A stretch of 64,000 bases of DNA, from the NCBI GenBank assembly GCA_963727095.1, contig CAVSEQ010000003.1, positions 194,016-258,015 on the forward strand, in the 5' to 3' direction. Below the pieces are notes generated by a model. The model was not told where the DNA came from. It ran no database searches and saw nothing but the letters and a program-made list of their open reading frames with translations. Both the position numbers and the translations under genes were made by a program. Below, piece by piece: positions 15,379-58,960 of the stretch (position 1 is its first letter; each line of letters starts with the position of its first letter). The DNA is from Candidatus Aminicenantes bacterium (GTDB lineage: Bacteria; Acidobacteriota; Aminicenantia; Aminicenantales; Saccharicenantaceae).

Positions 15379-15548
15379 GCCAATCGAGCCCCTTTCCCTG
15401 CCGGAGCTTCTCGGGGCATTCCCTCCGGCCGGGAGCGGACTCTCGGGAGCGACCAACACGGGTGAGGCGGAGTGACGCGGAGCCTCACCTGTGAGAAATA
15501 TCTTGAACAGGTGTTGCCTCTTGGCCTCGCCGGCGGGAAATATATGAC

Positions 15549-17150
15549 TTGAGGCTTGGAACCGACTCCTCGGTGGATTTGCGTCAGCGGGAGGCCGCTC
15601 TTTGCCCCGTTGACTTTTCGGACGGCCGTTCATATAAAGGATGCATGCGTGTCGTGCTGGCCGGATACAATGTGGACAGCTCCGTCCTCGAGGAACTAAA
15701 GAAGAACTCGCCGCCGCGCGACGATGTGACGCCGGAAACGCTCTCGGCGTCATACGCCCGCATCTCGAGAGACCCCCGTCCTGCCGACGAACTGAGGGCC
15801 GCGGCCCGGTCTGAGGTCGAACGGGCCCGCCGATCGAATGCGGCCATTATTTTTAAAATGGGCCATCATTCAGTGGCCGAGCATGCCGTTTTTAATTTCG
15901 ACATCATCGGGGTCAGCCGGCTGGCCATCGAGGAAATCGAACGATTCCGGCTCTGTTCTTTCACGGAAAAGTCGCAGCGCTATATCACGCTTGGAAGCGA
16001 TTTCGTGGTCCCCGCGGAGATCACGCGCGCCGGCAAGGCTAAGGTTTTCGTCGCGACCGTCAAGGCCCAGAACGCCCTTTATCACCGTTTGTTCGAAAAG
16101 CTCAAGCCTTTCTTTTTTGAGACGCACCGCGCGGAAGCGGCCGATCCGAGGAACCGGGCAATCCTCGAAGGCTGGGCCAAAGAAGACGCGCGCTACATCG
16201 TGAGCCTGGCGACGGAAGGCCAGCTCGGCATGACCATCAACGCCCGCAACCTCGAGCTTCTCATCCGGCGCTTTGCCGGCAGGAATAGCGACGAAATACG
16301 GGAGATCAGCGGCCGGATCGCCTCCTTGGCAAGGGAGGTGGCCCCTTCCATCATCCTGTTCACCGAGGCCTCTGAATTCGATGCCAAGACTCCCCTCGGC
16401 ACAGGGGCCGCCGTGTCCGCTCTTCTCCCGGCGGGCGGCTTTGCCCGCACCAGCCGGGCCTCTGCCCGCACGCCCGTGGCCCTGGCCGGCTGCACACCCG
16501 ATGGGGATGCGCAAATCCTCGCCGCCCTGCTCCACACGGCCTCCCATCTGAGCTACGATCAGTGCCTCCGAAGGGTGAAGAGGGCATCCTCGGCCGGCCG
16601 GCGCAACCTCGCCCGGAGCGCCTTCCGGCATATGGAGTTCTACGACTTTCCTCTTCGAGAATTCGAATACGCCGGCTTCCTGTTCGACCTCGTGGTATCG
16701 GCGTCGTGCTTTGCCCAGCTCAAGCGTCACCGGATGGCGACGCTGACCTGTCAAGGCTATGATCCCGCCCTGGGCGTCACTGTGCCGCCCTCGATCGAAG
16801 CCGTCGGCGCCGCGTCCGAATTCCGAGACTTGATCGGCCGCACGGATGACGTCCACGGCAGGCTCGCGAAAGAGGTCGGCCCGGCCGCCGATTATGTGCT
16901 GACCAACGCCCACCGGCGCCGGGTTCTCCTTGGAGTTAACGTGCGCGAGCTCTATCACATCTCCCGGCTCAGAGAGGATGCGACCGCGCAATGGGAGATC
17001 CGGAAGCTCGCGGCCGGGATGACGCGGCTGGCAAAAAAACGGATGCCGCTGGCCTGCCTGCTCCTCGGCGGAAAGGACGCCTATCCGGAAATCTACAAAA
17101 AGGTCTTCGGACGTCCGCCGCAAATGAAGCCGCCGAAGATGTTCAGCTGA
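15549..17150 (+). CDS. thyX: Flavin-dependent thymidylate synthase ThyX, tandem two-domain form (start possibly ATG 15645)
   Basis: Domain 1 SRLAIEEIERFRLCSFTEKSQRY (ThyX SQRY motif, RHR degraded to RFR); domain 2 LKRHRMATLTCQGY (RHR retained, SQRY degraded). Confidence 0.6.
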   Translation: MRLGTDSSVDLRQREAALCPVDFSDGRSYKGCMRVVLAGYNVDSSVLEELKKNSPPRDDVTPETLSASYARISRDPRPADELRAAARSEVERARRSNAAIIFKMGHHSVAEHAVFNFDIIGVSRLAIEEIERFRLCSFTEKSQRYITLGSDFVVPAEITRAGKAKVFVATVKAQNALYHRLFEKLKPFFFETHRAEAADPRNRAILEGWAKEDARYIVSLATEGQLGMTINARNLELLIRRFAGRNSDEIREISGRIASLAREVAPSIILFTEASEFDAKTPLGTGAAVSALLPAGGFARTSRASARTPVALAGCTPDGDAQILAALLHTASHLSYDQCLRRVKRASSAGRRNLARSAFRHMEFYDFPLREFEYAGFLFDLVVSASCFAQLKRHRMATLTCQGYDPALGVTVPPSIEAVGAASEFRDLIGRTDDVHGRLAKEVGPAADYVLTNAHRRRVLLGVNVRELYHISRLREDATAQWEIRKLAAGMTRLAKKRMPLACLLLGGKDAYPEIYKKVFGRPPQMKPPKMFS

Positions 17151-21547: not shown

Positions 21548-21802
21548 TCAGCGCGGCTTCGCGGGAATGACCTGCCAGGTGTATTTTTCGATGATCGGGT
21601 TGGCCAGGACCTTGTGCGCGATCTCGGGGACCAGGGCTTCGGCGTCCTTCCTGCTGACCCCTTCGAGTTCGAGCTCGAAAACCTTGCCTTGACGGACCTC
21701 CCGGATGGCGCCGTAACCCATCGTGTGGAGGGCGTTTTTCACGGTCTGGCCTTGGGGGTCGAGCACGCTGTCCTTGAACGAGACGAGGATTCTAACTCTC
21801 AT
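21548..21802 (-). CDS. purS: PurS subunit (84 aa)
   Basis: [21 protein letters not shown] typical PurS start; internal Met of ORF 21548..21871. Confidence 0.85.
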
Positions 21803-23093
21803 CGGCGAGCACCCTTTCAAAGATATAATCGATCTTGGCGAGATAAGGGTCCAGGGAGAAACAGGCCGCAATCTGTTCCCGGGACAGGGTCTTGACGATG
21901 TCAGGATCGGCGGCGACGAGACCCGGAAAATCCCGTCCTTCGTTCCAGGCCTTGAGGCTGTTGCGCTGGACGACCTGGTAGGCGTCCTCGCGGGTCATCC
22001 CATTCTTCGTCAGGGCCAGCAATACACTCTGCGAGAAGATGAGGCCGCGCGTGGCGTCGATATTGGACGTCATCCTGTCGCGATGGACCGACCAGTTCTT
22101 GATGATGTCCACGATTTCGGCCAGAAGGAAGTCGGTTACGATGAAGGAATCCGGGAAGACGATGCGCTCAGCCGAAGAATGGGAGATATCCCGTTCGTGC
22201 CAGAGGGCGATATTTTCGAGACCGACCTGGGCATTGGCCCTGACGAGGCGGGCCAGCCCGGAGATGCGCTCGCACCGGACAGGGTTCTTCTTATGGGGCA
22301 TGGAGGAGGATCCCTTTTGGCCTTGGGTGAAAGGCTCCTCGACTTCGAGGACTTCGGTCCGCTGCAGGTGGCGGATCTCGATGGCGAACTTTTCGATCGA
22401 TGTCGCCAGCAGGGCCAAGACTGAAAGAACCTCGGCGTGCCGGTCCCTTTGCAGAACCTGCGTCGAAACCTTGGCCGGGCTGAGCCTGAGTTTTCTGAGG
22501 GCCATGACTTCGACCCTCGGATCGAGGTGGATGTACGTTCCAACGGAGCCCGAGATCCTGCCGACCGAAATCACCTCGCGGGCCCTTTCGAGGCGCGCGA
22601 TGTGGCGCTTGATCTCCTCGTACCACACGAGGATTTTGAAGCCGAAGGTCACCGGCTCCGCATGGACGCCATGGGTCCGGCCGATGCATACGGTCCGCTT
22701 GTATTTCAGAGCCTCCCTCCTGAGGAGCCGCTGGAGGTCCCGGGTCTGGGCCAGGATTTTATCGAGCGATTCCTTGATCAGGAGAGACAGGGCCGTATCC
22801 ACGATGTCGTACGAGGTTAGGCCGACGTGGATGAAGCGGGATTGGGGGCCGACGTTCTCCGCCACGGAAGTCAAGAAGGCGATCATGTCGTGTTTGACGA
22901 CTTTTTCTATCTCGTCGATTTTCTCGACGGAGAAGGCGGCTTTGGCCTGAATCACCCTGAGGGCGGACTTGGGGATGCGGCCGAGCCTGGCCCAGGCTTC
23001 GCAAACGGCGAGCTCGACAGCGAGCCATTTTTTATACTTATTTTCGTCTGTCCAGACAGCTCCCATTTCAGGTCGAGTGTAGCGGTCAATCAT
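21792..23093 (-). CDS. purB: Adenylosuccinate lyase
   Basis: Fumarate-lyase family signature GSSSMPHKKNP. Confidence 0.95.
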   Translation of the reverse strand: MIDRYTRPEMGAVWTDENKYKKWLAVELAVCEAWARLGRIPKSALRVIQAKAAFSVEKIDEIEKVVKHDMIAFLTSVAENVGPQSRFIHVGLTSYDIVDTALSLLIKESLDKILAQTRDLQRLLRREALKYKRTVCIGRTHGVHAEPVTFGFKILVWYEEIKRHIARLERAREVISVGRISGSVGTYIHLDPRVEVMALRKLRLSPAKVSTQVLQRDRHAEVLSVLALLATSIEKFAIEIRHLQRTEVLEVEEPFTQGQKGSSSMPHKKNPVRCERISGLARLVRANAQVGLENIALWHERDISHSSAERIVFPDSFIVTDFLLAEIVDIIKNWSVHRDRMTSNIDATRGLIFSQSVLLALTKNGMTREDAYQVVQRNSLKAWNEGRDFPGLVAADPDIVKTLSREQIAACFSLDPYLAKIDYIFERVLADES

Positions 23094-23120: not shown

Positions 23121-23219
23121 TCCATGATATCAGCAGGGTGAAGCCGTTGTCAACGGAATGAGGCTGAACTGCTTTTGGCATTGCCCGGAAAGATGCGTGA
23201 AGCAGAGGGTAAAAGAGTC

Positions 23220-23515
23220 GTGCCAGATATCTCCCACCAGTGAGGCTAATAGGTAGGCTCTGTTTAAGACATTTCTTAAAAGTGCGGCTTCAAGACTAGA
23301 TCAAAAACTCATTTTAGATATTTTCCCCCAGTGAGGCGTCGAGTCGCTTAGGCGAGAAGAAAGACCCAAGGGTTGTTTCGGATATTTCCCACCAGTGAGG
23401 CGTCGAGAAAGATCGAGGACTCGTTTCAGATGTTTCCCAAAAGTGTGGCTCCGTGCCGCTCCGCCGCACTTTTGATGGTCGCTCCAAAGACTCCCTCCCA
23501 GCCGCTCCCTGCCGG
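23220..23515. repeat. Array of about five degenerate short repeats (core ~AGATRTTTCYYAMMAGTGMGGC, some followed by GTCGAG), with an AAAAGTGTGGC...GCCGCACTTTT hairpin and a GGTCGCTCC-AAAGACTCC...CCCTGCCGG tail module
   Basis: Units at ~23225, 23268, 23316, 23381, 23428 read in sequence; same unit family and order as the locus at 58597-58960. Confidence 0.5.
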
Positions 23516-23565
23516 AAAGAGTATTCTGAGCTACTCCGTCGGGATATCGGGTGCCGCAAAGGAAT

Positions 23566-23574
23566 TGGTATAAT
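23566..23574 (+). promoter_or_regulatory. Extended -10 promoter element TGgTATAAT ~25 nt upstream of the ECF sigma gene
   Basis: TGnTATAAT read in sequence; no convincing -35. Confidence 0.3.
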
Positions 23575-25450: not shown

Positions 25451-25524
25451 GCCAGCGTAGCTCAGTTAGGTAGAGCGGCTGATTTGTAATCAGCGGGTCA
25501 GGGGTTCGAATCCCTTCGCTGGCT
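25451..25524 (+). tRNA. thrU: tRNA-Thr (anticodon TGT)
   Basis: Cloverleaf: acceptor GCCAGCG/CGCTGGC, anticodon loop TTTGTAA, T-loop TTCGAAT. Confidence 0.85.
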
Positions 25525-25628
25525 TAAAAGCGGCGATAGAACGCGCTATCTGGCAACGGAATATCCTGACCCTGACGGAGGGATGCTTATCCTGGTCGAA
25601 CGTGGGCATCGAAAGTGATTCATGGCTT

Positions 25629-25711
25629 GGGCAGGTTCCAGAGTGGCCAAATGGGGCGGGCTGTAAACCCGCTGCGGAAACGCTTCGGAGGTTCGAATCC
25701 TTCCCTGCCCA
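25629..25711 (+). tRNA. tyrU: tRNA-Tyr (anticodon GTA), long variable arm
   Basis: Acceptor GGGCAGG/CCTGCCC, anticodon loop CTGTAAA, long variable arm, T-loop TTCGAAT. Confidence 0.85.
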
Positions 25712-25715
25712 CTTC

Positions 25716-25789
<74 letters not shown>

Positions 25790-25807
25790 CTTGTTCGAGC
25801 ATGTTGG

Positions 25808-25880
25808 GCCCAAGTAGCTCAGTTGGCAGAGCACGTCCTTGGTAAGGACGGGGTCACCAGTTCAATTCTGGTCTTGGGCT
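25808..25880 (+). tRNA. thrT: tRNA-Thr (anticodon GGT)
   Basis: Acceptor GCCCAAG/CTTGGGC, anticodon loop TTGGTAA. Confidence 0.85.
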
Positions 25881-27383: not shown

Positions 27384-27459
<76 letters not shown>

Positions 27460-33400: not shown

Positions 33401-34775
33401 GGATCGTGCGCATCGGGGCCCATGTGAAGTCCGGCGATATTCTGGTCGGCAAAGTCGCTCCGAAGGGGGAGACGCAACTGTCCCCGGAGGAAAAGCTCCT
33501 CAAGGCGATCTTCGGCGAGAAGGCGCTCGACGTCAAAGATGCCTCCCTTTACTGCTCGCCGGGGGTCGAAGGAACGATCATCGACGTCCGCATCTTCTCA
33601 CGCCGCGGCATCGAGAAAGGCGCCCGGGCGAAGGCCATCGAGAAGGACGAGATCGCCAGGATGAAAAGAAACCTGGATGACGAGATCGTCATCATGGAAA
33701 ACGAGAAGTGGCAGAAGGTCCGGGCCCTCCTCAAGGGCGAGGTCGTCGAAAAAGCACAAAAGATCGGCGGGGCGGCCGTGGAAAAAGGGGCCAAACTGAC
33801 CGAAAAGATCCTGGAGGGACTGACCTTCGAAGAGGCCCTGAAGCTTAAGCTGAACGATAACGAAGAGCGCGACAAGGAGATCAAAGACCTTGACAAGAAA
33901 GTCAAGAGGCAGATCGAAGCCCTGCGCGCGGTCTTCAAGGACAAAGTGGAGAATCTGAAGAAAGGGGACGAGCTCGCCCCCGGCGTTATTCAGTCGATCA
34001 AGGTCTTCATCGCCATGAAGCGGAAGCTGTCCGTGGGCGACAAAGTTTCCGGCCGCCACGGGAACAAAGGCATCGTGGCCAAGATCGTCCCTGAAGAGGA
34101 TATGCCTAGACTGCCCGACGGCACCCCGGTGGAGATCGTGCTCAACCCGTTGGGTGTTCCCTCCCGAATGAACGTCGGCCAGATTCTCGAAACGCACGCC
34201 GGCTGGGCCGCCCGGACCCTCAACATGTGGATGTCCACGCCGGTCTTCGACGGCGCCAGCGAGCACGAAATCAAGCTGCTCCTTAAGAAGGCCGGCCTGC
34301 CTGAATCCGGGAAGACGCTGCTCTATGACGGCATGGCGGGGGAAATTTTCGACCAGGAAGTCACCGTTGGTTACATCTACATGATGAAGCTCTATCATCT
34401 GGTCGATGACAAGATCCACGCCCGGTCGACCGGTCCGTACTCGCTCATCACCCAGCAGCCCTTGGGCGGCAAGGCCCAATTCGGCGGGCAGCGGTTCGGC
34501 GAAATGGAAGTATGGGCTCTGGAGGCCTACGGCGCGGCGTTCACACTCCAGGAGCTTCTGACCGTCAAGTCCGACGACGTCGAAGGCCGAGCCAAGATCT
34601 ATGAGGCTATCGTCAAGGGCGACCTCGACTTCACTCCCGGCCTGCCCGAATCGGTCAACGTCCTCATCCGCGAGCTCCAGAGCCTCTGTCTGAACTTCGA
34701 GCTCGAGAAGGGCGAGAAGGAAGAAGTCCTGCCCTGGGGCATCGCCGTTCCCCAGACGACAAAAGGAGAATCCTA

Positions 34776-58541: not shown

Positions 58542-58556
58542 ACTGAGATTATGATG

Positions 58557-58589
58557 GTGGCCCGGCTTCCGCCGGGCCATTTTTTTTGT
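58557..58589 (+). terminator. Rho-independent terminator of the alpha operon: GGCCCGGC-TTCC-GCCGGGCC followed by T8
   Basis: Perfect 8-bp GC stem plus T-run read in sequence, 16 nt after rplQ stop. Confidence 0.8.
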
Positions 58590-58596
58590 TCTCTTT

Positions 58597-58960
58597 TAAG
58601 AAATCTCCCTCCAGTGAGGCGTCGAGCCACTCCGCCTCGCTGGAGTCGGTCGCTCCGGAGACTCTGTTCCCTGCCGGCCCAGCTCCCGCCATGCCATTTT
58701 TTTATTCCGGTTGCAGATATTTCTCACTGGTGAGGCTTCGAGCAAGTTCCAAAACTCAATTCAGATGTTTCCCACCACTGAGGCCAAGAGGTAAGACCTG
58801 TTTAAGATGTTTCTTAAAAGTGCGGCTGGGAACCAAAGCCTAACCAAGATATTTCTTAAAAGTGCGGCTTCGAGTCGCTCAGCCGCACTTTTATTGGTCG
58901 CTTCGAAGACTCCGCTCCCTGCCGGTCCTCTCCGAAGACTCCGCTGCGTTCCGGTCCCGT
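58597..58960. repeat. Second copy of the repeat-array element (units at ~58600, 58715, 58762, 58805, 58848; hairpins CCAGTGAGGCG...CGCCTCGCTGG and AAAAGTGCGGC...GCCGCACTTTT; tail module GGTCGCTYCGRAGACTCC...CCCTGCCGG present 2-3 times)
   Basis: Same unit family, order and flanking modules as the locus at 23220-23515 (e.g. ...ACTGAGGCC AAGAGGTAAGACCTGTTTAAG ATGTTTCTTAAAAGTGCGGCT vs ...AGTGAGGCT AATAGGTAGGCTCTGTTTAAG ACATTTCTTAAAAGTGCGGCT). Confidence 0.5.

Follow-up and report, generated by a model that had tools for sequence, protein, structure and literature searches.

The non-coding array that separates the divergent purB (21792-23093, minus strand) and ECF sigma genes belongs to a genuine and hitherto undescribed family of small hairpin repeats interspersed in Aminicenantes genomes, present here in an unusual tandem half-element form. 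We consider it probable, at roughly 0.6, that these repeats constitute a new REP/BOX-like interspersed family, selfish or semi-domesticated, non-autonomous and acting at the DNA level. As far as sampled, the element is probably confined to Aminicenantes, and the array itself more likely than not reflects tandem expansion, specific to this locus, of the 5' half of a dispersed ~100-nt intergenic repeat. The array is most likely no regulator of the flanking purB and ECF sigma genes.

Within the 64,000-nt stretch of DNA analyzed here (the window), the array (locus A, 23211-23515, plus strand) consists of four head-only half units followed by one complete element. The first-pass annotation had described about five copies of a short unit at irregular spacing, and a repeat search recovered five in-register direct copies (starts 23221, 23263, 23312, 23376, and 23424; spacing 42, 49, 64, and 48 nt) with unit lengths of 22-32 nt and 66-88% identity to the reference copy. 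All units lie on the plus strand. The core of unit 1 (23225-23246) joins the head AGATATCTCC to a 5' arm, CACCAGTGAGGC, that is without a partner arm; unit 2 (core 23267-23288) carries the arm AAAAGTGCGGC, the perfect complement of the sole 3' arm at 23463-23473; unit 3 (core 23316-23337) is followed by a loop-like GTCGAGTCGCT and a decayed tail remnant, and unit 4 (core 23380-23401) by GTCGAG and the pre-head of unit 5. Unit 5 is the complete element (23415-23515; covariance model R1, 86.1 bits, E=4e-25), in which the pre-head and head precede a stem (23438-23449 paired with 23463-23474), the loop TCCGTGCCGCTCC (23450-23462), and a tail (23475-23515) that contains a 10-nt tandem duplication at 23495-23514. 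The terminal stem, originally called perfect, is real and slightly imperfect: its two arms, separated by a loop of 13 nt, form 11 Watson-Crick pairs and a single T.G wobble; the tail module reported behind it corresponds to the C-rich GGTCGCTCC..CCCTGCCGG, which finishes at 23515. The two overlapping ORFs (23373-23573, plus strand; 23314-23559, minus strand) match no Pfam family, and a gene finder based on codon usage, trained on these loci and able to reproduce the window's ribosomal, rpoBC, and purB/sigma genes, does not call them; this agrees with the earlier view that they are unlikely to be real.

In the complete element, the pre-head AAGATCCAAGACTCGTTTC is followed by the head AGATATTTCC, then by a 12-bp stem whose sequence is free and which encloses a conserved loop of 13 nt, TCCGAGYCGCTCC, and finally by a C-rich tail of the form GAT GGTCGCTCC NN AGACTCC GCTCCCTGCCGG. 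Three CGCTCC motifs (GGAGCG on the complementary strand) are present, one of them in the loop and the other two in the tail. Sixty-six distinct copies were aligned over 92 nt without difficulty. In this alignment, the head, the loop TCCGAGYCGCTCC, and the tail (GGTCGCTYC NN AGASTCC GCTCCCTGCCGG) are conserved or do not vary at all, and the ~30-nt tail is nearly invariant. The 12-bp stem is free to change in sequence but retains its pairing. Pairing is kept in 94.6% of stem cells, and the covariation score is 0.597, whereas shuffling the columns gives 0.186 and sliding the partners gives no more than 0.112. Covariation across copies, which had been proposed as a check, is thus strong for the terminal stem, with changes on both sides in 11 of 12 pairs. 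Stems are shared by the copies of one genome and differ from genome to genome. Their mismatches are strand-asymmetric: among 71 distinct stems (the window plus L001-L069), there are 37 A.C mismatches vs. 10 G.T. This excess of A.C points to wobble pairs tolerated on the reverse, GGAG-rich strand and hence to a strand-specific constraint, on RNA or on single-stranded DNA; the asymmetry is unexplained under a purely double-stranded DNA role.

Two variations on this anatomy were also observed. A variant subfamily in L046 (3490-3720) has the same head, hairpin, and loop and a different tail (TCCTCCGCTCGCTTGCGC), and is present as three tandem copies adjoining a tRNA gene. A second recurrent module consists of a hairpin, GGGGACAYGTAC..GTAYGTGTCCCC, that resembles a terminator and runs into a T-rich stretch. 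It usually stands just before the element head (~20-60 nt upstream of it in L002, L005, L008, L010, L022, and L028), and in L037 (1040-1080) it lies downstream of the element.

The same modules recur at 58586-58954 (plus strand) and 15425-15565 (minus strand) of the window, where they had been missed in the first reading. The 22-nt core AGATRTTTCYYANNNGTGNGGC has 12 matches in the window vs. 0.11 expected by chance. Four complete ~92-nt elements (23415-23515, 58586-58677, and 58834-58925 on the plus strand; 15425-15516 on the minus strand) and eight head-only half units are present, and all 12 window units align in register. Model R1 returns exactly these four complete copies, at 86-98 bits, and nothing else credible; its weak matches at 34358, 48809, and 39581 fall inside rpoB and ribosomal protein genes and were rejected as noise. 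Locus B1 (58586-58677, plus strand; R1 88.3 bits) is a solitary complete element directly 3' of the rplQ terminator and is bounded on both sides by duplicated GCCATTTTTTT. B1 is placed in the T-run of this terminator (region 58556-58700); in L023, the rplQ terminator is directly followed by TTTTTTTTATCCTCCGG, and there is no B1 copy. Locus B2 (58695-58954, plus strand) holds three head-only units (cores at 58715, 58763, and 58805), a complete element (58834-58925; R1 98.5 bits), and a second degenerate tail (58926-58954). Locus C (15425-15565, minus strand), which lies between rtcB and thyX and is antisense to both, comprises one head-only unit (core 15524-15545) and a complete element (15425-15516; R1 91.5 bits).

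The window unit consensus, AAGATCNAAGACTCGTTTC AGATATTTCC CACCAGTGAGGC TTCGAG, represents the pre-head, the head, the 5' arm, and the first six loop bases; its length of ~48 nt is the commonest period in the arrays. A unit followed by YAAKAGGYAASRCCTGT is common to A, B2, and C, and a unit followed by TTCRAG..AAAACTCA is common to A and B2. Because the apparent spacers recur between arrays in this way, the arrays appear to be built from common modules in different orders. A CRISPR array, which the first-pass annotation had already discounted, was rejected: the units are degenerate (66-88% identical), the spacing is irregular, the spacers of 16-38 nt are homologous and recur between arrays, and the element is dispersed. 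No cas genes were identified among the called neighbors, which are housekeeping genes. A type III antitoxin-like reading was rejected on the same features, namely degenerate units, irregular spacing, recurrent homologous spacers, and dispersal of the element.

To place the element beyond the window, we scanned one genome per species with the exact tail pattern and obtained 69 further loci, all of them in Aminicenantes/Aminicenantia/Aminicenantales or Acidobacteria MAGs, or else in unnamed or generically named MAGs. Model R1 finds 107 copies in 497 kb of related loci. The closest named relatives of the window PurB are Aminicenantales proteins, at 78% identity. Alignment between genomes is limited to the element, and the surrounding spacer does not align. 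Of the element clusters, 76/78 are intergenic, the remaining two lying inside low-confidence gene calls. Further copies, the search for which had been suggested at the outset, thus exist both elsewhere in the window and in related genomes, and the MITE/REP-type option raised there is supported by a dispersed, multi-copy, strictly intergenic hairpin element throughout one lineage. Each MAG contains only about 1-7 exact tail matches, which is low for a REP-like parasite.

The arrangement of the copies is variable. Single copies fall into four orientation classes with respect to neighbor genes (12/12/10/8) and show no preference, and no orientation bias was detected against the local GC skew or the majority gene strand. 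Approximately 28 clusters in related genomes are head-to-head inverted doublets with tails outward, forming palindromes of ~175 nt; these are enriched between convergent genes (13/25). The window has no inverted doublets, only singles and direct arrays. Direct multi-head arrays were observed only in the window, L023 (at the same rplQ site), and L046, with none in 109 metagenome loci. In four genomes, a copy occupies the same syntenic site downstream of rplQ, and comparison of the window with L031 reveals compensated stem changes together with a tail and a second degenerate tail common to both. Syntenic copies with compensated stems suggest selection in place rather than turnover.

We looked for a partner gene in the neighborhood of the element. 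Clustering of flanking proteins and Pfam annotation beside ~75 element loci yielded no recurrent neighbor family, only ordinary paralogs, and no transposase-like gene was found adjoining these loci. Tblastn with approximate RAYT/IS200 TnpA queries, run against 8-kb flanks only, gave nothing below E=0.2. No element copies were found in viral contigs, and the searchable literature holds nothing relevant on repeats or RNA motifs in the Aminicenantes.

In one Aminicenantes clade, the inverted doublet forms the center of a larger element with the terminal inverted repeat (TIR) GGYTCTTCTCCCNNTTCCGGG (L009 4858-5195, L013 1399-1767, and L038 150-353; also L074-L182). A metagenome scan with this TIR gave 109 loci, which include a short class of TIR pairs (~190 bp, 33 copies) that is without the hairpin element and a long class (260-330 bp, 23 copies) in which the doublet is central. 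The 8-nt flanks of the TIR pairs agree at 6-8/8 positions in 39/63 cases, and the TIR element is therefore a true MITE with an 8-bp AT-rich target duplication. The long MITE differs from the short form in having the doublet where the latter has a small central hairpin, and the single element is exactly one doublet half, from the dyad to CCGG. No parent IS of the TIR-MITE was found among the 109 TIR loci. The only long-distance TIR pair (L127 561-2978; 2.4 kb apart, flanks identical at 7/8) encloses an AT-rich 640-aa ORF for a secreted NHL-like protein (weak NHL-repeat match) and no transposase; the ORF matches no family in Pfam or PADLOC, and it is perhaps a passenger that the MITE ends have moved.

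Neither the family TIR GGYTCTTCTCCCNNTTCCGGG nor other inverted termini surround the window copies anywhere in the 64 kb. Among 37 singles, no target-site duplication was detected, the longest shared flank word averaging 5.84 nt vs. 5.66 nt in mismatched controls; the exceptions are B1 (11 nt) and L047 (a 42-nt diverged duplicate). Classical cut-and-paste insertion is unsupported for the naked copies, those of the window included. Because the window is without TIR and the singles are without target duplication, the naked element is separable from the carrier MITE; MITE and hairpin element are separable also because the 190-bp MITE occurs without the hairpin element. At L047 (4200-4400), the single element lies between two diverged ~42-nt copies of the 3' end of the upstream gene, both of which encode KAKL.E.I.K.I-stop, as if the insertion had given a replacement C-terminus.

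To examine the relation of the array to the flanking genes, we predicted the promoters of the purB-sigma spacer. A near-consensus purB promoter (TTGACA-18-TATCAT with TG; 23153-23124, minus strand) lies to the left of the array, and the extended -10 of the sigma gene, TGGTATAAT (23566-23574, plus strand), lies to its right. As judged from these predicted sites, the array lies between the two promoters without overlapping either and probably influences them little or not at all. In L070, L071, and L072, three relatives whose PurB is 82-83% identical, the same divergent gene pair is kept with a spacer of only 140-230 bp, vs. 506 bp in the window; this spacer has no R1 matches in any of the three, and it keeps the blocks TTGTCAACGGAAT and GCAAAGGAA..TATAAT..GATGTCTAA. 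The short, element-free spacer of the relatives therefore indicates that the array was gained in the window's lineage and is no conserved part of promoter control. In the surrounding region of the window, five tRNA genes flank tuf (25451-25880 and 27384-27456) and are followed by rpmG-secE-nusG-rplKA, rpoBC, and ribosomal protein operons; in L073, purB directly abuts rpmG-secE-nusG, without the ECF sigma cluster.

Three other explanations of the element deserve consideration. The first is a structured RNA, which might act in trans as a family of small RNAs or in cis as part of an mRNA, with the array as a multi-site version of it. This reading accounts for several of the observations, although we regard it as unlikely overall. 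The strong stem covariation with a conserved loop is a pattern typical of protein-recognized RNA hairpins; a transcribed, functional reverse-strand RNA would likewise give the 37 to 10 excess of A.C over G.T mismatches; the syntenic copies persist with compensated changes; and CGCTCC is found three times in loop and tail. In this reading, the loop and the three CGCUCC motifs would, with similarly small likelihood, bind a protein or Shine-Dalgarno-like sequences. However, the whole locus A array is no more stable than shuffled sequences (z of -0.05 and -0.18 on the two strands), and the scan proposed for a known RNA family came back empty: Rfam 15 at the gathering threshold finds only tRNAs in the whole window, and at E<=10 nothing credible matches locus A or the canonical doublet. 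Scans of three loci for sigma-70-like promoters and intrinsic terminators found none within the elements; the purB promoter and the rplQ terminator were the sole sites detected, and each lies outside them. Moreover, several other genomes carry, immediately before the head on the forward strand, a hairpin with a T-run that resembles a terminator, the random orientation to flanking genes means that co-transcription gives no consistent strand, and the array is missing at the orthologous site of relatives. The absence of promoter and terminator, the preceding terminator-like hairpins, and the random orientation together argue against a self-standing sRNA gene or a cis-acting mRNA element. Of the structured small RNA suggested in the first-pass annotation, only the conserved terminal hairpin survives; the array as a whole, which folds like its shuffles, has no promoter or terminator of its own, and matches no Rfam family, does not.

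An iteron-like array of DNA sites, at which the head/E-box-like unit would recruit a host protein such as a nucleoid-associated protein or a regulator and so tune the purB and ECF-sigma promoters, could explain why direct repeats lie 42-64 bp apart between two divergent promoters, why the units contain a short palindromic core, CACNNGTG, and why orientation is independent of the neighbor genes. It is nonetheless improbable, both as to the array and as to the recruiting unit: the element is found also downstream of rplQ, between convergent genes, and in ~75 other unrelated contexts; the unit cores vary where a binding site should be constant, the varying part being the stem arm; and multi-head arrays are confined to the window's lineage. 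The iteron-like array proposed earlier for this divergent promoter region is also contradicted by the three closest relatives examined, which keep both promoters without any element, and by the position of the purB promoter and the sigma -10 outside the array. On the other hand, the window copies could be inert fossils, internal fragments of the long palindromic TIR-MITE that remained after TIR loss and now evolve by local duplication only. That the single element equals exactly half of the doublet at the center of the 260-330 bp MITE, that its last ~14 nt align with the short MITE backbone, and that no TIRs or TSDs surround the window copies would all fit such an origin; yet fossils would not, in four copies of one genome, keep 11-12 of 12 pairs in lineage-specific, mutually compensated stems, their appearance at a site where relatives have nothing would be impossible, and no TIR remnant exists anywhere in the 64 kb. 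We thus hold both the fossil origin and the confinement to local duplication to be very doubtful and prefer the REP/BOX-like repeat family.

We propose that the folded hairpin of this REP/BOX-like repeat, with its constant loop and flanks, would be recognized by a trans-acting protein that copies or retains the element, probably on single-stranded DNA. The head-only units may have arisen by breakage or replication slippage at the hairpin loop and may then have been multiplied by local duplication and by exchange between arrays. Head-only units end in the loop: most window units and L046 stop after position 6, L023 after position 8, and unit 3 of locus A after position 11; 3'-half-only copies (L064, L065, and L020) begin at or near the loop. 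Because the break point falls in the loop at no fixed base, hairpin breakage or stalling/slippage fits better than a site-specific nick. Judged by sequence comparison, the near-identical adjacent units A3/A4 and B2-3/B2-4 point to local duplication, and the modules common to several arrays point to exchange among loci. A more far-reaching possibility, to which we assign a low likelihood, is that the element is a strand-specific folded nucleic-acid signal whose loop and three CGCTCC motifs are read by an Aminicenantes protein, in a hairpin-guided mobile DNA or ncRNA family. If so, it would represent a new class of mobile DNA that needs no TIR, TSD, or RAYT, in which breaking and rejoining in the loop would generate half-element arrays; in the alternative form, it would be a multi-copy non-coding RNA family transcribed from the GGAG-rich strand.

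The Aminicenantes are uncultured and their non-coding DNA is uncharted; the alignment and covariance model now define a lineage-wide repeat, whose conserved hairpin is supported unusually cleanly. The element might serve as a marker for binning and, via array length, for strain typing, as a caution against spurious ORF or "sRNA" annotation in these spacers, and as an entry point to the protein that recognizes the loop. The doublet nested in a TIR/TSD MITE and the half-element arrays together offer a natural system in which to study how small repeats are assembled, broken apart, and used again. The array is probably of little consequence for purB and the ECF sigma gene.

Among known bacterial repeats, a close comparison is with REP/REPIN sequences, short extragenic palindromic repeats mobilized by RAYT (Y1 HUH) transposases (PMC3116915, PMC3337134). 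Like these, the element has conserved flanks; can be single, paired in an inverted doublet that folds into a long hairpin, or part of a more complex cluster; is lineage-specific with apparently vertical inheritance; and has naked copies without TIRs and TSDs (PMC3116915, PMC3337134). It is likewise a short palindrome with conserved flanks, extragenic and multi-copy (4 complete and 8 half copies per 64 kb). It differs in unit size (~92 nt vs. ~20-40 nt for REP), in its apparently lower copy number, and in its conserved part, which is the loop (the stem being free) rather than the stem sequence as in REPs; furthermore, no RAYT or IS200-like gene was found near the ~75 element loci. REPs carry a conserved GTAG-like tetranucleotide 5' of the palindrome, whereas the element has no GTAG-type tetranucleotide at the stem foot, which is preceded instead by AGATATTTCC(CAG).

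The BOX elements of Streptococcus, with the structure boxA-boxB(n)-boxC, resemble the element in being modular, intergenic, and stem-loop-forming, with an internal module in variable tandem number and arrays that vary between loci and strains (PMC3049150). The sequences are unrelated, however, and in the Aminicenantes element the amplified module is the 5' half of a hairpin, so that the internal units are without a pairing partner; 1-5 head units precede one fixed hairpin-and-tail module, with no fixed 5' terminal module and no terminal inverted boxA/boxC-like modules around the array. MITEs, defined by TIR and TSD and mobilized by a DDE transposase in trans, are matched only by the composite element of one Aminicenantes clade, whereas the window copies and most singles have neither TIR nor TSD. 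Mycobacterial MIRU/VNTR loci are dispersed and contain a variable number of ~40-60 bp tandem units, as do the loci described here, but MIRUs have no hairpin halves and no conserved terminal hairpin-plus-tail module. The element thus behaves like REP/REPIN and BOX repeats, but it does so without GTAG, TIR, TSD, or a found RAYT, and with the loop as its conserved part.
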